Sequence record: LC739536.1
DNA length: 64,000 nt
DNA from: Escherichia phage phiWec187
Reading direction: 5' to 3' (one strand)
Each line of letters opens with the position of its first letter. Positions within the stretch are counted from its first letter, which is position 1. Under the pieces are notes generated by a model. It made no database searches. It was given only the letters and a program-made list of their open reading frames with translations, and had not been told where the DNA came from. Of the stretch, positions 16,614-22,568 are shown in pieces. Position numbers and translations under genes: made by a program.

Positions 16614-16750
16614 ATTTTCTCCTATCTCTTATGGTCTTTGCGTTATTCTAGATGTTCAAACATCTAATTATGAAATGGTTTAAAAGTGCGGAACAACCTT
16701 GGCAATTACAGATTGTTCCACATAAAAACTCCTTTAAAATCAAAGATTTG

Positions 16751-19700
16751 TCAATGACAACTAGCCCATGAGTTACCAACATCGTAACCAGCAGTGAGAG
16801 GTACATTAAGATTGTAATACTCACCAGCTTTATTAACAGCGATAGATGCTAATTCTCCAGCACGACTGTAGGCTGTAAACCAACCACCTTTCGGAGATTC
16901 ATGTACGTTAGCCCAAATCTTGCCAGTACGTTTCTCTTCCTCTTCTTTCCAGGTATTAACTTTATCCAAACATTCTTTATCAATTTTCTTTTGTTCTTCT
17001 GGATCATCAACTTGAGTCCAACCTAAAGATTCTTTAGAGAACCATTTAAAATGCACCAGATCACGAGTTACTTCAAGCTGTGCTTCATCGTGATATGCAA
17101 TCATTTGTTGAACGAATGACTTATTTTTCCAGTCATCAACAAAAAAGTCAACAGCTAATCCTTCTTCTTCGATAAGATCGTCGTAGATAACCATTGCTCT
17201 TTTTGCACAAATAACACCACCACTCTGGAACAGAGAGTTAAGTATTGCGTGTGCAGATCGTGTAGGTACTTTTCTACCATCAATACCGAGAATGTATTTC
17301 TTACCTGTTTTAACCCAAAAATCATGCAGACGTTCTTTAAGAAGCGCAAGAGGTTTTGCAGCTTCCCAGAAAGCATCGTATACAAGCTGTCCTGTATACA
17401 TATCACTACCTATAGTTTTTGCTACTTTTGCAGCTTGAGCGCCGTACGTGCAGTTACCTGTCAACGTGATAAAACCATTCTGACGCATAACAAAAGATTC
17501 ATTCTTGGTTGAGATACAGAATACATCTGTTACTCGTGAAAAAGCTCTTGTCAACCTCTGTCCTGAAATAGTTTGTCCGTTATTGATTGCCAACGTTAAC
17601 ATGCCATCTTTTTGAACAGAACCATACGCAATATTACCTGTCATATTGATAGCCAAAGAAACAGCGTCGCTAATCTTACCTTTCTTTTGACGGATAACAA
17701 GACTGCCGTTTGGACGCTTATGACCATCTGCCATCCAGAATGCCTCTAAGAATGCTTCCAACACAGCTTGACCTTGATTAGCAATTAATGTAGACCAGTC
17801 CACTTCGTGCTTATTTTGACCCACTTCAACGCCACATTTAGTCAAAAATTCCCTAAACTGACTCTTATTAGGACGTAATGAATGCATCGTTCCAGATACA
17901 TACTCGTCAAATGTGAAGATATCTCCCACAGCCTCACGTGCTTCTTCTAAGAATTTTTTCTCATCTTGATCTACCGTGACTGTAATACCCATTACTTTAT
18001 TTCTGGCTTTGCCAGACCACTTATAGTAGCCATCCGAAAGAAGCCAGCCTAAGAAACGACCTTCTTCCACTGTTAGAGTAGACACCACACCAGATCGCCC
18101 TGCTGCAATTATGTTTGACTCCGAGTTTAAATCCTCTGTAGATCTACGCTCCACTTGCATATACTTAACATTGTTACCATCTGATCGCATAGTTTTTCTC
18201 TGTGCGTTAATCCACATATGATCGTTAGTAACTTCTACTTTGAACCACTTGTTACCGAGAGAGACAACTTCTGCATCGTTATAGTCCCACAGCTTAAGAA
18301 TAGGGGTATATTCGTAAAGAGCGGTGTGAGTATTATAAGATAAAACTTCATCCCCTACAAAAAGATCTTTACGTTTCTTCCAACCCGTTCTTGTTAACAC
18401 TTCCGTATTATCTACAGGTACACAACCGTATTTAACGCTCTTAGCAGGACCACGTTCAAACTTACGTCCAATAATATCAGTAATATGTTTTGCCATCATA
18501 GTATGCACATCGTTTGGTTTTTCTAACAGAAGTGCATTACAGTAAGCATGATCAGGATTATCATATCTCCACGTATAATGCGACTCAATCTTCGCCTCTA
18601 ATGAATCAAAGTCATAACCAATCTGGAAGTATTTAGGAACCTCTACACCAAATAAGTTACGCATTTCATATCCGTACAGAGATGTTACACGTGGGATATT
18701 TGCTACTAACCTATGTTTCATACGAGATGTAGCTGCATCACACGTTGCAGCAGGAGTTGGTATACGACCATCAGCCCTTACTGCTGCCAGATAACCTTTA
18801 TCGTAATCCTCTTCTTCTTCCCAATCAGCACCACCCCCTAGAATAGAGTTCCTACGGTGTTTATACGTAAGATACTGCACAACCTGCGTAGCATAAGGAA
18901 ACTTTTCACCTAGTGCTTCCAAGTTAGGACAAATATCTTTCTCTTGCCCTTTTGTAAAGGAAGGGTTAGTAAGCACTTTAACACCACGACCTTTAGCTTT
19001 AGCAATACGATCTCTTAGTTTCCATTCCAAAGTTTCTGGTGTGCACTCCAGATGATCACATCTGTCCTGGCAGAAATTAGATGCTAATGTTTGATCAACA
19101 TAGTCACGAATGGCTTTCTCCATTTGTGCTTCATCTTTCTTAATCTTAGTGCCAGATTTAAGAGTGATATCTTTATCTTTATATTCAGATGGACTCCAAC
19201 CTAAACCAACTAACCAATTTTTAATATGTGTTGTGTCGTCTAAAGTAGCAGGTACTGTAGGATCACAAATAGGTTCTTCTGCTGGAATAGGTAGTTTAAA
19301 CTCTTTACCTAATGCAAATAACCACCAACCATCTTCTTTTTGTACAAGTTCACCAGAATGTTTCTCTGCAAACTTTATCATGTTACTTGAAGGTTCACCA
19401 TTCTTTTTAAACTGTAGTTTAGGTGGAATGAATGATTTCAAATAACCTTTAGTAGCAGGTTTAGGAGGTAGCACAGGTTCTGCCTCTAAACGACATGCTT
19501 CCATTCGAGCATCCAGATCACGAATATTATCTTCTGCTTGTTTCATGTTGAAAGCAAAGCCACGGTGCTCTTGACGTGTAATAATATCAGCTACACGTTG
19601 TTCTAAGTTAAATGGTTCAGACCACTTATTATAATCACCCCACTCTTCCATCAAATAACGGAACACTGCGGTGTTAGCTTTGTTATCGTAAATACAGTAA

Positions 19701-20299
19701 TACAGCATATCTGCTGCAAATGTTCTAAATCTTTCAGTTTCAGGGATGTTTTTTCTGAAATCAATTTTAACATCCCCTCCAGCTTTCTTAGATAACTCTG
19801 CCAGACTATGACCACCGAAGCGATCAGGGTTTAGTGTCTTACTTAAGATCATAGTATCACAAATTTCAATGTTACTATTACCCCAAGTATTGTACTTAAT
19901 ACTGTAGTTGAGTTTAAAAAATAATTTAATTGCCAGTAAGTCGAAGTTAATGATGTTGTGTCCAACTACTTTGGTAATTTTATAGTTTGAATTACCTTTA
20001 AATTTACCTGTTCCGTTTACAAAATCAGGAAAATCTTTAAGAGGGAAATGGGTATATTCTAAATGCTCATATTCCTCCAGTCGGTATTCATACTTTCCGT
20101 CAGTCTCAACATACGGACGACCATCGAAAAGATATTTATCACCATCATGGAAAGCAATAATCTCTCCAGTATCATGACTTTCGCACACAATACAGTGCAT
20201 TGCAAAACTATCTTTTAAACGATATGGACTTGCCAAGTAATCTACACTTTCGTCATTAAGCAAGTTGTTACTTTCAATGTCGAAAGTAAAAGCTCCCAT
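16751..20299 (-). CDS. family A DNA polymerase with N-terminal 3'-5' exonuclease, interrupted by an intein
   Basis: Motif B region RGPAKSVKYG...CTYGAQAAK split by a 324-aa insert; motif C AYHDEAQLE; N-terminal exonuclease-like FDIESN. Confidence 0.85.
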   Translation of the reverse strand: MGAFTFDIESNNLLNDESVDYLASPYRLKDSFAMHCIVCESHDTGEIIAFHDGDKYLFDGRPYVETDGKYEYRLEEYEHLEYTHFPLKDFPDFVNGTGKFKGNSNYKITKVVGHNIINFDLLAIKLFFKLNYSIKYNTWGNSNIEICDTMILSKTLNPDRFGGHSLAELSKKAGGDVKIDFRKNIPETERFRTFAADMLYYCIYDNKANTAVFRYLMEEWGDYNKWSEPFNLEQRVADIITRQEHRGFAFNMKQAEDNIRDLDARMEACRLEAEPVLPPKPATKGYLKSFIPPKLQFKKNGEPSSNMIKFAEKHSGELVQKEDGWWLFALGKEFKLPIPAEEPICDPTVPATLDDTTHIKNWLVGLGWSPSEYKDKDITLKSGTKIKKDEAQMEKAIRDYVDQTLASNFCQDRCDHLECTPETLEWKLRDRIAKAKGRGVKVLTNPSFTKGQEKDICPNLEALGEKFPYATQVVQYLTYKHRRNSILGGGADWEEEEDYDKGYLAAVRADGRIPTPAATCDAATSRMKHRLVANIPRVTSLYGYEMRNLFGVEVPKYFQIGYDFDSLEAKIESHYTWRYDNPDHAYCNALLLEKPNDVHTMMAKHITDIIGRKFERGPAKSVKYGCVPVDNTEVLTRTGWKKRKDLFVGDEVLSYNTHTALYEYTPILKLWDYNDAEVVSLGNKWFKVEVTNDHMWINAQRKTMRSDGNNVKYMQVERRSTEDLNSESNIIAAGRSGVVSTLTVEEGRFLGWLLSDGYYKWSGKARNKVMGITVTVDQDEKKFLEEAREAVGDIFTFDEYVSGTMHSLRPNKSQFREFLTKCGVEVGQNKHEVDWSTLIANQGQAVLEAFLEAFWMADGHKRPNGSLVIRQKKGKISDAVSLAINMTGNIAYGSVQKDGMLTLAINNGQTISGQRLTRAFSRVTDVFCISTKNESFVMRQNGFITLTGNCTYGAQAAKVAKTIGSDMYTGQLVYDAFWEAAKPLALLKERLHDFWVKTGKKYILGIDGRKVPTRSAHAILNSLFQSGGVICAKRAMVIYDDLIEEEGLAVDFFVDDWKNKSFVQQMIAYHDEAQLEVTRDLVHFKWFSKESLGWTQVDDPEEQKKIDKECLDKVNTWKEEEEKRTGKIWANVHESPKGGWFTAYSRAGELASIAVNKAGEYYNLNVPLTAGYDVGNSWASCH
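17453..18424 (-). mobile_element. intein with LAGLIDADG-type homing endonuclease inside DNA polymerase motif B
   Basis: Begins CVPVDNTEVL (intein block A), ends ...LTGN with +1 Cys; internal GWLLSDGYY and LEAFWMADGH resemble the two LAGLIDADG helices; removal restores K-x3-YG-x2-YG. Confidence 0.75.
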
Positions 20300-20392
20300 T
20301 CTCCCTCCTTAAAATATTTCTAAAGTCTTAATTTGTTAATACTGTACCATAAATTAATTGTTTTGTAAAGGGGCTTTCGCCCCTTCTTGTTA

Positions 20393-20785
20393 TTAATTGT
20401 CAGCACTTAGTTGTACTTTAATAAGGCAATTAGGGACACCATTGGTATTTCTCAAGCCTACACGGTCAATTTTAACTGTCCCTGTTAAGCCACTAAAAGT
20501 GGAAACAATGTTATTAATGTTTTCATCCTTACTAGCGATATCAAGAACAACTTTATCACTAACATTTTTCAGCATACGATCTACAAGCTCTCCCACAAAA
20601 CCACCGGTAGTTTGAATGAGAAGGTATAGGCAACCATCCTCAAACCACAAATGTTCACCATAAGCATAACCGTATGGTTCTAACTCCGATCCATCTTGAA
20701 ATTTAAACTTAGCAACAGTTTTCGTATAATCATACCCTAACGCAGAAGGGGATACCCCATAGAGGATATTTTCGTTGTCTTTCAT
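20393..20785 (-). CDS. hypothetical protein
   Basis: Start set at the internal ATG (20785) preceded by AAGGAGA; the longer listed ORF would overlap the primase gene. Confidence 0.5.
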   Translation of the reverse strand: MKDNENILYGVSPSALGYDYTKTVAKFKFQDGSELEPYGYAYGEHLWFEDGCLYLLIQTTGGFVGELVDRMLKNVSDKVVLDIASKDENINNIVSTFSGLTGTVKIDRVGLRNTNGVPNCLIKVQLSADN

Positions 20786-20795
20786 ATTTCTCTCC

Positions 20796-22568
20796 TTAAT
20801 AAAAACCATCAGGAATATTCTCTGGGTTACTTGTGTATTGATCGTAATCGTGAAGTGTAGCTGTTTTAATCTCATAGAAGAAACTACCTGCTGCACCAGT
20901 CTCTGAGAACTCACGGTTCTTTAGAATGTAGCAATATGTGCGGTTACGTTCCATAGGATCTTCAGCTTGTTTATCACGCTCCAGCGCAATTGTGATACCA
21001 GCACCTTTAGCAAGGAAGCTACTACCCATTGCATCATCTTCTACAATATGTTCATTACTATTGTTAGAAGACTTTTTAACGTGTGAAATTACAACAATGG
21101 TAATTGCGTACTCTTTCATAATGCGTTTGAGCCACGTCGCAAGTTCCTCTTGTTGTGACACGTCCATACCAGAAAGCAAGTCAGAATAAGGGTCGATAAC
21201 AAGAATGGTTACTCCGAAATAAATAATCATTTCCAGAACCTTCTCTTTAATCACATCTACGTTAGCCCCACGATCATCACAAACATAGAAACGTGGTGTT
21301 CCATCTTCTCGTTCGTAAAAATCACGAATCTTTTCTTCATTATCTTTTAAAATCTTTTCCTTCTCTTCTTTTGTTTTACGGTGAAGAGGGATGTGCAAGA
21401 ATGAAGACAGTAAGTTACGAGAATACTTCTTATACGTTGCCTCCAAAGATAAAATACCAAGAGTATGTTCTGGGTGTGCAAGAATAATGTGCTTCGTAAT
21501 CTCGTTAACCAACAGTGTTTTACCGATACTTGTTTTTGCAAGTATAACAGTAATTTCTTCTTCTACCAAGCCTCCACCTAACATATTAGAAGCAACACGC
21601 ATGAATGGAGGAAGGGTGATCATTTTAGCTTCCAGGCATTCCAAGGCTGCTTCATACAGTACGTTAGAAGCATAAACACCAGCAGGTGTGTACAGTTTAG
21701 CTTTGAAAAAGCGATCAAGAAAGTGATCAATTTTTCCTTCTACTAGTGCCTGGTTAGGATCTTTAACATCCGTTAGTTCCATCACGTAAACTTTATTACG
21801 TGGTAAGATTTTAACACATTTCTCAACTGCTGCACGTCCAGCTTCATCATTATCCATACACAGAACAATCTTTTTAAATTGATCTAAGAATTTATAACGA
21901 TGTTGAAGCTGCTTATGCAGAGATGTTTCGCCACAAGTGCCAGATACTACAGCAGGAACAGGATATTTACCGCCCTTGTTATAATCTTTTAGCATCTGTG
22001 TTGCAGCCAGCATATCGTGTTCACCACCAACGATTAGAATAGTACCGCTGTGGTTACGATATTTAAACTCACCAAAAAGATCACAATCCTTTCCTGTTTC
22101 ACCGATAGGATGCGAAAAATCTTTTGGATCAATACGTTGTTTATACCCAGCAATATTGTAATCTTTAGTTGTAGGGTATAGTGTTGAAATTACTTCGCCA
22201 GTAGCTTCATCGTACATATAGCGTACACCGAAAGGTTTAGAGATATCTTCACGAATACCGCGATAACCTTTTGGATTAGTTCCAGTGCTGGCTTTTAGTT
22301 TATCATGTACTTCTGGATTAAACTCACTACCCAAGATATCCTCCTCTTCAATTTCTTCGCCGTGTGCATTTAACCATTTTTGATCAGGGATAGTAAAGCC
22401 ACAAGAAAAACAATGTGCTCCTCGATGGTCTTCATCGGCATCTAAGCCATATACCATCAAATTGTTTTGTGATCGATCACGCCCTCCTTTCATACAACGA
22501 GGACACCCAGTATGTCCTTCTTGACTTAAATCAATGTTATACCCATATTTATTTACAACATAAGACAC
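20796..22568 (-). CDS. bifunctional DNA primase-helicase (T7 gp4-like)
   Basis: N-terminal Cys4 zinc ribbon (CPRCMKGG...HCFSCGF), central TOPRIM-like region, C-terminal Walker A (AKTSIGKT) helicase domain. Confidence 0.8.
   Translation of the reverse strand: MSYVVNKYGYNIDLSQEGHTGCPRCMKGGRDRSQNNLMVYGLDADEDHRGAHCFSCGFTIPDQKWLNAHGEEIEEEDILGSEFNPEVHDKLKASTGTNPKGYRGIREDISKPFGVRYMYDEATGEVISTLYPTTKDYNIAGYKQRIDPKDFSHPIGETGKDCDLFGEFKYRNHSGTILIVGGEHDMLAATQMLKDYNKGGKYPVPAVVSGTCGETSLHKQLQHRYKFLDQFKKIVLCMDNDEAGRAAVEKCVKILPRNKVYVMELTDVKDPNQALVEGKIDHFLDRFFKAKLYTPAGVYASNVLYEAALECLEAKMITLPPFMRVASNMLGGGLVEEEITVILAKTSIGKTLLVNEITKHIILAHPEHTLGILSLEATYKKYSRNLLSSFLHIPLHRKTKEEKEKILKDNEEKIRDFYEREDGTPRFYVCDDRGANVDVIKEKVLEMIIYFGVTILVIDPYSDLLSGMDVSQQEELATWLKRIMKEYAITIVVISHVKKSSNNSNEHIVEDDAMGSSFLAKGAGITIALERDKQAEDPMERNRTYCYILKNREFSETGAAGSFFYEIKTATLHDYDQYTSNPENIPDGFY

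Follow-up and report, generated by a model that had tools for sequence, protein, structure and literature searches.

Escherichia phage phiWec187 (sequence record LC739536.1) carries, in the 64,000-nucleotide (nt) stretch analysed here (the window), a family A DNA polymerase gene in which 324 amino acid (aa) residues are inserted in frame into an essential helix. The locus raises the question of what this insert is and how the polymerase is restored from so interrupted a precursor. According to its sequence, the insert is very probably a functional and recently mobile intein. The genome is that of a phi92-like (Justusliebigvirus-type) coliphage, and over its first 25 kb it shares 97.6–98.3% identity with the dozen E. 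coli phage records listed as its best matches. The polymerase gene shows 99.4% full-length identity to four phage records and 96–97% identity to intein-less Justusliebigvirus-type polymerase genes. Its parts are the following.

16751..20299, minus strand: gene of the intein-containing family A DNA polymerase precursor, 1182 aa plus stop codon (open reading frame, ORF).
18425..20299, minus strand: N-extein coding part, 625 aa, with the exonuclease domain, motif A and the first half of motif B, ending in ...RGPAKSVKYG (alignments).
17453..18424, minus strand: putative intein, 324 aa, Cys1 ... Thr322-Gly323-Asn324 (translation, relatives without it, predicted fold).
16751..17452, minus strand: C-extein coding part, from the Cys+1 nucleophile (CTYGAQAAK...) through the stop codon (ORF, alignments).

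Translation of the minus strand at 17453–18424 gave an uninterrupted sequence of 324 aa (CVPVDNTEVL...GFITLTGN) located between ...ERGPAKSVKYG and CTYGAQAAK, in one reading frame continuous with both exteins. The coordinates, length and both termini given in the sequence-only reading, an earlier annotation of the window made without database searches, were exactly reproduced. Its placement of the insert in motif B of a family A polymerase was likewise confirmed by alignment with T7 DNA polymerase and by the Pfam search after in silico splicing. The protein spliced in silico (858 aa) matched T7 DNA polymerase with an E-value of 9e-22 and a continuous junction region, in which ...ERGPAKSVKYG-CTYGAQ... 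pairs with ...TRDNAKTFIYG-FLYGAG... of T7 with no gap. The junction lies between the equivalents of T7 G527 and F528 within motif B (the O-helix), where Tyr526 and Tyr530 flank it (704-residue chain count). Both motif A (D..S.E) and motif B (R...K...[YF]G..YG) are present, with the equivalents of T7 D475/E480 and R518/K522/Y526/Y530 aligned. The score of Pfam DNA_pol_A (PF00476) was 28.4 bits with the insert and 48.2 bits without it (cut-off 34.3). Phages bearing the motif-B intein were isolated as viable despite this interruption of the polymerase in an essential helix.

The presence of the insert was surveyed in the phage collection, where 121 records matched the polymerase gene. Four of them matched from end to end at 99.4%, and about 50 matched at 96–97% in two pieces covering 72–73% of the query, the missing part being the 972-nt insert. 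The polymerase of phage VivaForever (859 aa) reads ...KSVKYG/ITYGAQ... at the insertion site, exactly without the insert; at nucleotide level the intein-less allele of the VivaForever or inny type reads ...AAATCTGTTAAGTATGGT/ATTACTTATGGTGCTCAAGC... at this site. The motif-B intein was found in the GenBank records of eight phages, four of which carry no annotation. In the annotated carriers the gene is labelled only as a polymerase or a hypothetical protein, namely, "DNA polymerase I" or "putative DNA polymerase/3'-5' exonuclease domain" in nepoznato, nieznany and ukendt and "hypothetical protein" in AV126.

Four unannotated records that are 99.4% identical to the polymerase gene (MG065639, MG065645, MG065656 and MG065689) are named "Campylobacter phage" (host C. 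jejuni). For three of the four, the listing also gives 97.7% identity over 25 kb to the present genome, which is of the E. coli phage type. Probably, the host label of these records is wrong or the records are contaminants.

The central part of the insert matches the endonuclease domain of PI-PkoII, with both LAGLIDADG motifs aligned, and three features were delimited in it.

17570..18088, minus strand: nested LAGLIDADG homing-endonuclease domain, approximately residues 113–285.
18023..18055, minus strand: LAGLIDADG motif 1, FLGWLLSDGYY, residues 124–134, with putative catalytic Asp131 (aligned to LLGYYVSEGYA of PI-PkoII).
17720..17752, minus strand: LAGLIDADG motif 2, FLEAFWMADGH, residues 225–235, with putative catalytic Asp233 (aligned to FLEGYFIGDGD of PI-PkoII).

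An AlphaFold model of the insert built from eight sequences had a predicted local distance difference test score (pLDDT) of 83.8 and a predicted template modelling score (pTM) of 0.85. In this predicted structure, the N- and C-terminal segments build a HINT-fold splicing domain, and a two-motif LAGLIDADG nuclease with the pseudo-dimeric alpha-beta-beta-alpha-beta-beta-alpha fold is also present. The top Foldseek matches were solved homing-endonuclease inteins, namely, TliVMA (2.6e-15), PhoVMA, PI-SceI, PI-PfuI and PI-PkoII, and I-DmoI matched the nuclease part only. The two LAGLIDADG-like helices pointed out in the sequence-only reading (GWLLSDGYY and LEAFWMADGH) are thus borne out by the PI-PkoII alignment and by Foldseek. 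Its proposal of an intein with a LAGLIDADG-type endonuclease is supported by the fold, by the exact absence of the insert from relatives and by a family signature, as follows.

The word-indexed protein search gave only seven relatives of the intein, and an exhaustive search of 1.84 billion cluster representatives (clusters at 50% identity) was needed to reveal the family, with 1768 relatives at E ≤ 1e-3 and 614 at E ≤ 1e-10. Residues were counted in the best 150 of these 1768 relatives together with the seven earlier matches, aligned to the family profile. The aligned copies have Cys at A:1 (160/160), Thr at B:7 (162/166), His at B:10 (162/166), Trp at B:12 (160/166), Cys at F:4 (162/166), Thr at G:5 (156/166), Gly at G:6 (161/164) and Asn at G:7 (161/162); position +1 is occupied by Cys in 71 copies, Ser in 48 and Thr in 42. 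The exact string C-T-H-W-C-T-G-N occurs in 119 full-length copies. The acidic residue of LAGLIDADG motif 1 is Asp in 125 copies and Glu in 9, that of motif 2 is Asp in 111 and Glu in 51, and A232-D233-G234 is invariant in family alignment A1. Among 128 full-length copies, 59 are inserted at this same motif-B site (K-x3-[YFL]-x/[CST]-x-[YF]-[GN]), 13 lie one residue upstream and 10 at the third position of a variant motif B. These residue and site counts indicate that the Gly-Asn end is a hallmark of the family and that polymerase motif B is its main home. The splice-junction residues are thus conserved in more than 100 relatives that have diverged from one another and occupy many hosts and many sites. 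The penultimate Gly had been recorded in the sequence-only reading as an atypical splice junction; the residue is there, but within the family it is the rule, and it has experimental precedent in two inteins, gp51 and AceL.

The first of these, the intein of gp51 (RDF/metallophosphoesterase) of mycobacteriophage Bethlehem, belongs to the same family and aligns with the window intein over the full length (23% identity, E-value 3e-5); the limits of the construct used in its study were confirmed. The two inteins (317 and 324 aa, respectively) share Cys1, the TxxH of block B, the V[FW]C layout of block F (V-W-C in gp51, V-F-C in the window intein), a nested LAGLIDADG nuclease and the ...LTGN end. 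The gp51 intein differs in host protein and site, in Ser at +1, in Val at B:12 and in a His four residues before its end (IHLTGN), whereas the window intein ends in ITLTGN without this His. The gp51 intein splices completely with its penultimate Gly, and the G316H substitution slows splicing (Kelley et al. 2016, PMC5050341). The second, the AceL NrdHF intein (PDB 6ZGQ), ends in T-G-N, and G145H kills its activity (PMC7891396). It is a naturally split, proven class 3 intein with Ala1, Met at B:12, Ser at +1 and no endonuclease (PMC7891396); its Arg69 (B:11) helps the C-terminal step, whereas the window intein has Met70 at this position, plus Cys1, Trp71 and Cys+1. The solved inteins TliVMA/PhoVMA (7QSU, 7QST), PI-SceI (1VDE), PI-PfuI (1DQ3) and PI-PkoII (2CW7) combine splicing and double-LAGLIDADG domains as the window intein does, but show 9–16% identity to it, Asp at F:4 and a His-Asn end. 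In some of these endonuclease-containing class 1 inteins, additional DNA-recognition regions are present; all reside in archaeal or yeast proteins (VMA, PolB, RNR).

Several other members of the family deserve mention. In the Pseudomonas phages KIL1 to KIL5, a 331-aa member (CLPVD...ITGN/CNY) is located four residues earlier in motif B (K-T/C-N-Y), and the coding sequence (CDS) of the KIL1 polymerase (L005 737–3844) is annotated as a join of two pieces, as if it contained an intron. A 341-aa member (CADEATE...FTGN/S) is present in an unannotated protein, gp135 of Mycobacterium phage Pinkcreek (L007 2018–4396), whose gene is flanked by those of baseplate J and a minor tail protein and which is thus a structural-gene host, unlike the usual replication proteins. 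Several metagenomic proteins (P0042, P0045, P0063, P0066, P0108, P0138 and P0148) contain two full family inteins per polypeptide; in P0042, the search of cluster representatives matched four stretches.

Free-standing homologues of the intein adjoin polymerase genes (L006 2474–3544, VnaP_184 of Vibrio phage VnaP; L004 4001–5038, P0004; P0005; P0084; P0119). They keep a splicing-domain-like region and the double-LAGLIDADG architecture, and the splicing residues are lost together: there is no Cys1 and no terminal Asn, B:7 is Gly/Ser, B:10 is Gln/Ser and F:4 is Ser/Gly/Asp. By analogy with the yeast HO endonuclease, they look like intein-derived stand-alone homing endonucleases.

The recent history of the intein can be read from the mosaic structure of the polymerase gene. 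In a sliding comparison, the gene is ~98–100% identical to that of VivaForever except around the intein, where it is 100% identical to that of the Phapecoctavirus phage nepoznato; outside this tract the nepoznato polymerase is ~75–80% identical (~55–90% in 60-nt windows). The inteins of phiWec187 and nepoznato differ at one position in 972 nt. All 61 informative sites inside the tract are of the nepoznato type, whereas outside it 596 sites are of the VivaForever type and 12 of the nepoznato type. Base-by-base comparison showed that the tract starts 217–228 nt upstream of the intein (18641–18652) and ends 12–20 nt downstream (17441–17433).

17441..18641, minus strand: minimal foreign (co-converted) tract, comprising the intein, at least 217 nt of the N-extein and at least 12 nt of the C-extein (outer limits 17433 and 18652).

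A short exchanged tract closely surrounding the insertion site is what homing endonucleases classically leave behind when they initiate double-strand-break repair. By this sequence comparison, the mosaic is most readily read as a homing and co-conversion footprint between two phage genera, from which we infer the activity of the nuclease. The extein part of the tract (TWRYDNPDHAYC...ERGPAKSVKYG/C) is unlike the alleles without an intein in either genus, the sequence being CWRYE.EPHEYC...ERSPAKSVKYG/I in ESCO13, 3A1_SA_NWU, phiWec188 and VivaForever alike. The intein thus came with a piece of a third polymerase lineage. Phage nepoznato was considered as the original donor and rejected, as the intein-free alleles of both genera share CWRYE.EPHEY...ERSPAKSVKYG/ITYG, unlike the transferred flank. 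The intein-free alleles have Ile at +1, and the Cys+1 nucleophile was thus imported with the intein tract. In Pakpunavirus JG004, KYG-CTYG occurs without an intein, so Cys can be native at this position and, judging from such sequences, is tolerated there in related polymerases. The GC content of the intein (0.38–0.42) and its flanks (0.36–0.43) does not mark the insert as foreign; since base composition is alike, the foreign origin is visible solely in the analysis of informative sites. The co-conversion mosaic, the import of Cys+1 and the block F Cys with the signature discussed below had gone unremarked in the earlier reading.

The residues expected to take part in splicing were located as follows.

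18212..18229, minus strand: splicing block B, T66-N-D-H69-M70-W71 (B:7 Thr, B:10 His, B:12 Trp; family alignments).
17516..17518, minus strand: Cys303 at block F position 4 (V-F-C; family alignments, AceL alignment, spacing).
17450..17461, minus strand: C-terminal splice junction, Thr322-Gly323-Asn324 / Cys+1 (translation, family alignments).

T66 and H69 are invariant in family alignment A2. The position of Cys303 is occupied by Cys in 10 of 10 aligned inteins and aligns with C124 of AceL NrdHF. Asp300 was also considered as F:4 and rejected on the AceL alignment and the spacing. The characters of class 1 inteins are present, namely, the N-terminal Cys1, Thr66 and His69 of block B, and the terminal Asn324 followed by Cys+1. 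The usual but not obligatory penultimate His (G:6) and Asp at F:4 are absent, with Gly323 and Cys303 in their places; working exceptions to both are documented (PMC5050341, PMC7664689, PMC4031507, PMC3196547).

Based on these residues, the following sequence of events is proposed. The 1182-aa precursor would be translated with its O-helix (motif B) interrupted, and the splicing domain, composed of residues 1 to ~112 and ~286 to 324, would excise the intein and join ...KSVKYG to CTYGAQ..., giving the 858-aa polymerase. Most likely the class 1 route is taken, in which Cys1, aided by Thr66 and His69, would form the N-terminal thioester; the N-extein would pass to Cys+1, cyclisation of Asn324 would free the intein, and an S-to-N shift would make the peptide bond. 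The C-terminal step would run without a penultimate or block F His, as in the experimentally studied relatives, and Cys303, Trp71 and Thr322 may form a class-3-like active site. During co-infection, the double-LAGLIDADG nuclease (Asp131, Asp233) would cut intein-less polymerase alleles, and repair would copy in the intein with flanking extein, including the Cys+1 codon in place of the native Ile. That splicing takes place is suggested by the position in the essential O-helix, by the viability of the carrier phages and, by analogy, by the splicing of gp51 and AceL; the nuclease activity and the order of the chemical steps we infer.

Five points weigh against a functional, recently mobile intein. 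The penultimate His is absent, and there is no His anywhere in the last 60 residues. B:11 is Met70, where most relatives have Arg or Lys, so the Arg that compensates in AceL is missing. The loop after motif 1 (residues 133–157) is the only poorly defined part of the AlphaFold model. Scans of the insert against Pfam, NCBIfam and PHROGs gave sub-threshold matches or none at the curated thresholds. Finally, ordinary recombination could also give such a mosaic.

The alternative that survives best concerns the chemistry. The insert would be a real splicing intein, but Cys303 would attack the N-terminal junction and form a block F branched thioester before transfer to Cys+1, by a class 3 route or a Cys1-Cys303-Cys+1 relay, Cys1 being dispensable or just part of the relay; this is possible, though we regard it as doubtful. 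The intein has the full Trp-Cys-Thr (WCT) triplet where class 3 inteins have it, namely, W71 (B:12), C303 (F:4) and T322 (G:5), and Cys303 is separated from Asn324 by 21 residues, the same spacing as in MP-Be DnaB (C320–N341) and Mle DnaB (C124–N145) (PMC2807308, PMC5222942). Triplet and spacing are shared with the class 3 inteins MP-Be DnaB, Msm/Mle/Mch DnaB-1 and Dra Snf2, and a phage association has been proposed for this class (PMC2807308, PMC3196547). The closest solved splicing domain is that of the class 3 AceL NrdHF, with C-T-G-N and the missing histidines in common (PMC7891396), and later papers call the N-terminal Cys/Ser/Thr "not required" in class 3 inteins (PMC5222942). However, class 3 was defined by the WCT triplet co-varying with the loss of the N-terminal nucleophile (PMC2807308), and the original description (no N-terminal Cys/Ser/Thr, usually Ser/Thr at +1) does not fit an intein with both Cys1 and Cys+1, the latter being rare in class 3. 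Cys1 is found in every aligned family copy, whereas 34 of the 37 WCT inteins of the original set lack an N-terminal nucleophile (PMC2807308), and a residue kept so strictly is likely to be in use. Also conserved is the Thr of block B at B:7, a class 1 character. Canonical class 3 inteins also differ in having His at G:6, mostly Ser/Thr at +1 and helicase/ATPase P-loops as insertion sites, and the family profile detected no canonical class 3 inteins, those of DnaB included, at E ≤ 1. Cys at F:4 also occurs in class 1 inteins of polyphyletic origin (PMC3196547), and the gp51 homologue was placed in class 1 by Kelley et al. (PMC5050341). Since the strict conservation of Cys1 and B:7 Thr is taken as the stronger argument, class 1 initiation at Cys1 is favoured on the sequence, with Cys303 replacing the F:4 Asp as an active-site helper.

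The combination of Cys1 with the complete class 3 signature and the Gly-Asn end tentatively suggests that this large, phage-borne family is a natural evolutionary bridge from class 1 to class 3, perhaps with a Cys1 → Cys303 → Cys+1 thioester relay or a start from either cysteine. We consider this rather unlikely, and on structural grounds a bridge of this kind has been judged improbable (PMC7664689). Nevertheless, since both candidate initiating cysteines are invariant and C-terminal histidines are lacking, the family is a good test case for the origin of class 3 from class 1.

A second, somewhat less probable alternative accepts splicing and concerns mobility: the endonuclease would be inactive, the mosaic would result from ordinary homologous recombination of co-infecting phages, and the intein would now persist vertically. 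Many relatives have lost the first LAGLIDADG motif (the phi92-type intein described below, P0006/P0007), which indicates that nuclease decay is common in the family, and the low-confidence loop noted above directly follows this motif. The window intein, however, retains the two LAGLIDADG motifs with their acidic residues intact. Moreover, 971 of 972 nt are identical between inteins in two genera whose polymerase genes otherwise differ by 20–25%, and the exchanged tract is tight (≤228 nt and ≤20 nt on the two sides), as expected of double-strand-break repair at the insertion site.

An accessory domain without splicing activity, or a decayed intein that the mature polymerase retains, is a very improbable reading of the insert, in spite of the sub-threshold matches in standard domain libraries and the absence of the usual penultimate His. 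The insert splits the O-helix between residues adjacent in T7 polymerase and is dispensable in 96–97% identical phages. Its junction residues are kept in more than 100 diverged relatives, yet are lost together in the free-standing derivatives, which need no splicing. Comparison with intein-free polymerases had been proposed as one check in the sequence-only reading, and since close relatives lack exactly the 972-nt insert, a conserved non-splicing domain is ruled out. A group I intron acting at the RNA level, with an in-frame endonuclease ORF, is scarcely credible and was rejected: the KIL1 CDS is annotated as a join and phage polymerase genes often carry introns, but here a single uninterrupted frame runs on from both exteins, the ends of the insert are exactly intein blocks A and G with a splicing-domain fold on both sides of the nuclease, and an Rfam scan of 16700–20350 found no intron family at E ≤ 1.

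The co-converted tract also covers the site of another intein of the same polymerase.

18572..18577, minus strand: empty second intein site, ...IESHY / TWRY, with the downstream codon Thr and not Cys (alignment with SD2, KP13-16 and TSP7_1).

In phages phi92, SD2, ZCKP1, TSP7_1 and KP13-16, a homologous 245-aa intein (CVPMD...ITGN/CWRY) is located 50 codons upstream of the motif-B site (L003 3501–4235, L008 2501–3235, L013); in SD2 it is annotated as an "intein-containing DNA polymerase precursor". This phi92-type intein shares with the window intein the host polymerase, the family (32% identity) and the CVP.D...ITGN/C ends, but its insertion point follows ...IESHY and lies 12 residues beyond the Asp of motif A, and it has only the second LAGLIDADG motif. 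No record with both the phi92-type and the motif-B inteins was found (107 matches in 107 phage records). Since the co-conversion tract overwrites the phi92-type site, turning its Cys codon into Thr, the two inteins may exclude each other.

Much of this picture agrees with earlier work. It is established that replication proteins, bacterial DNA polymerase I among them, can harbour inteins (PMC4760082) and that phage inteins may lack a penultimate His (PMC5050341), and the same is true of LAGLIDADG-bearing inteins and of homing with co-conversion. No paper describing this motif-B intein was found. A 2024 paper states that inteins were not reported in coliphages (PMC11162368), and the BASEL study annotated some coliphage inteins (PMC8594841). 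The present locus goes modestly beyond the routine in its clean inter-genus mosaic importing a nucleophile and in the family-wide signature of Cys1, WCT and Gly. The C1/TxxHxW/C/TGN signature together with the motif-B site provides a simple rule to recover hundreds of unannotated phage inteins. The transfer footprint is clean; because the tract imports Cys+1 and overwrites the neighbouring site, the locus lends itself to the study of homing, and of how neighbouring inteins compete, in coliphages of the therapeutic type. By analogy with its studied relatives, a compact E. coli phage intein splicing without His at G:6 or F:13 could serve as a protein-engineering scaffold.

Upstream of the polymerase gene, a 173-aa ORF with a GTG start (20393–20914, minus strand) overlaps the 3' end of the primase/helicase ORF (20796–22568, minus strand) by ~120 nt. 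Its VivaForever counterpart is annotated as a shorter CDS of 396 nt, and for this reason the long GTG start is probably not real.

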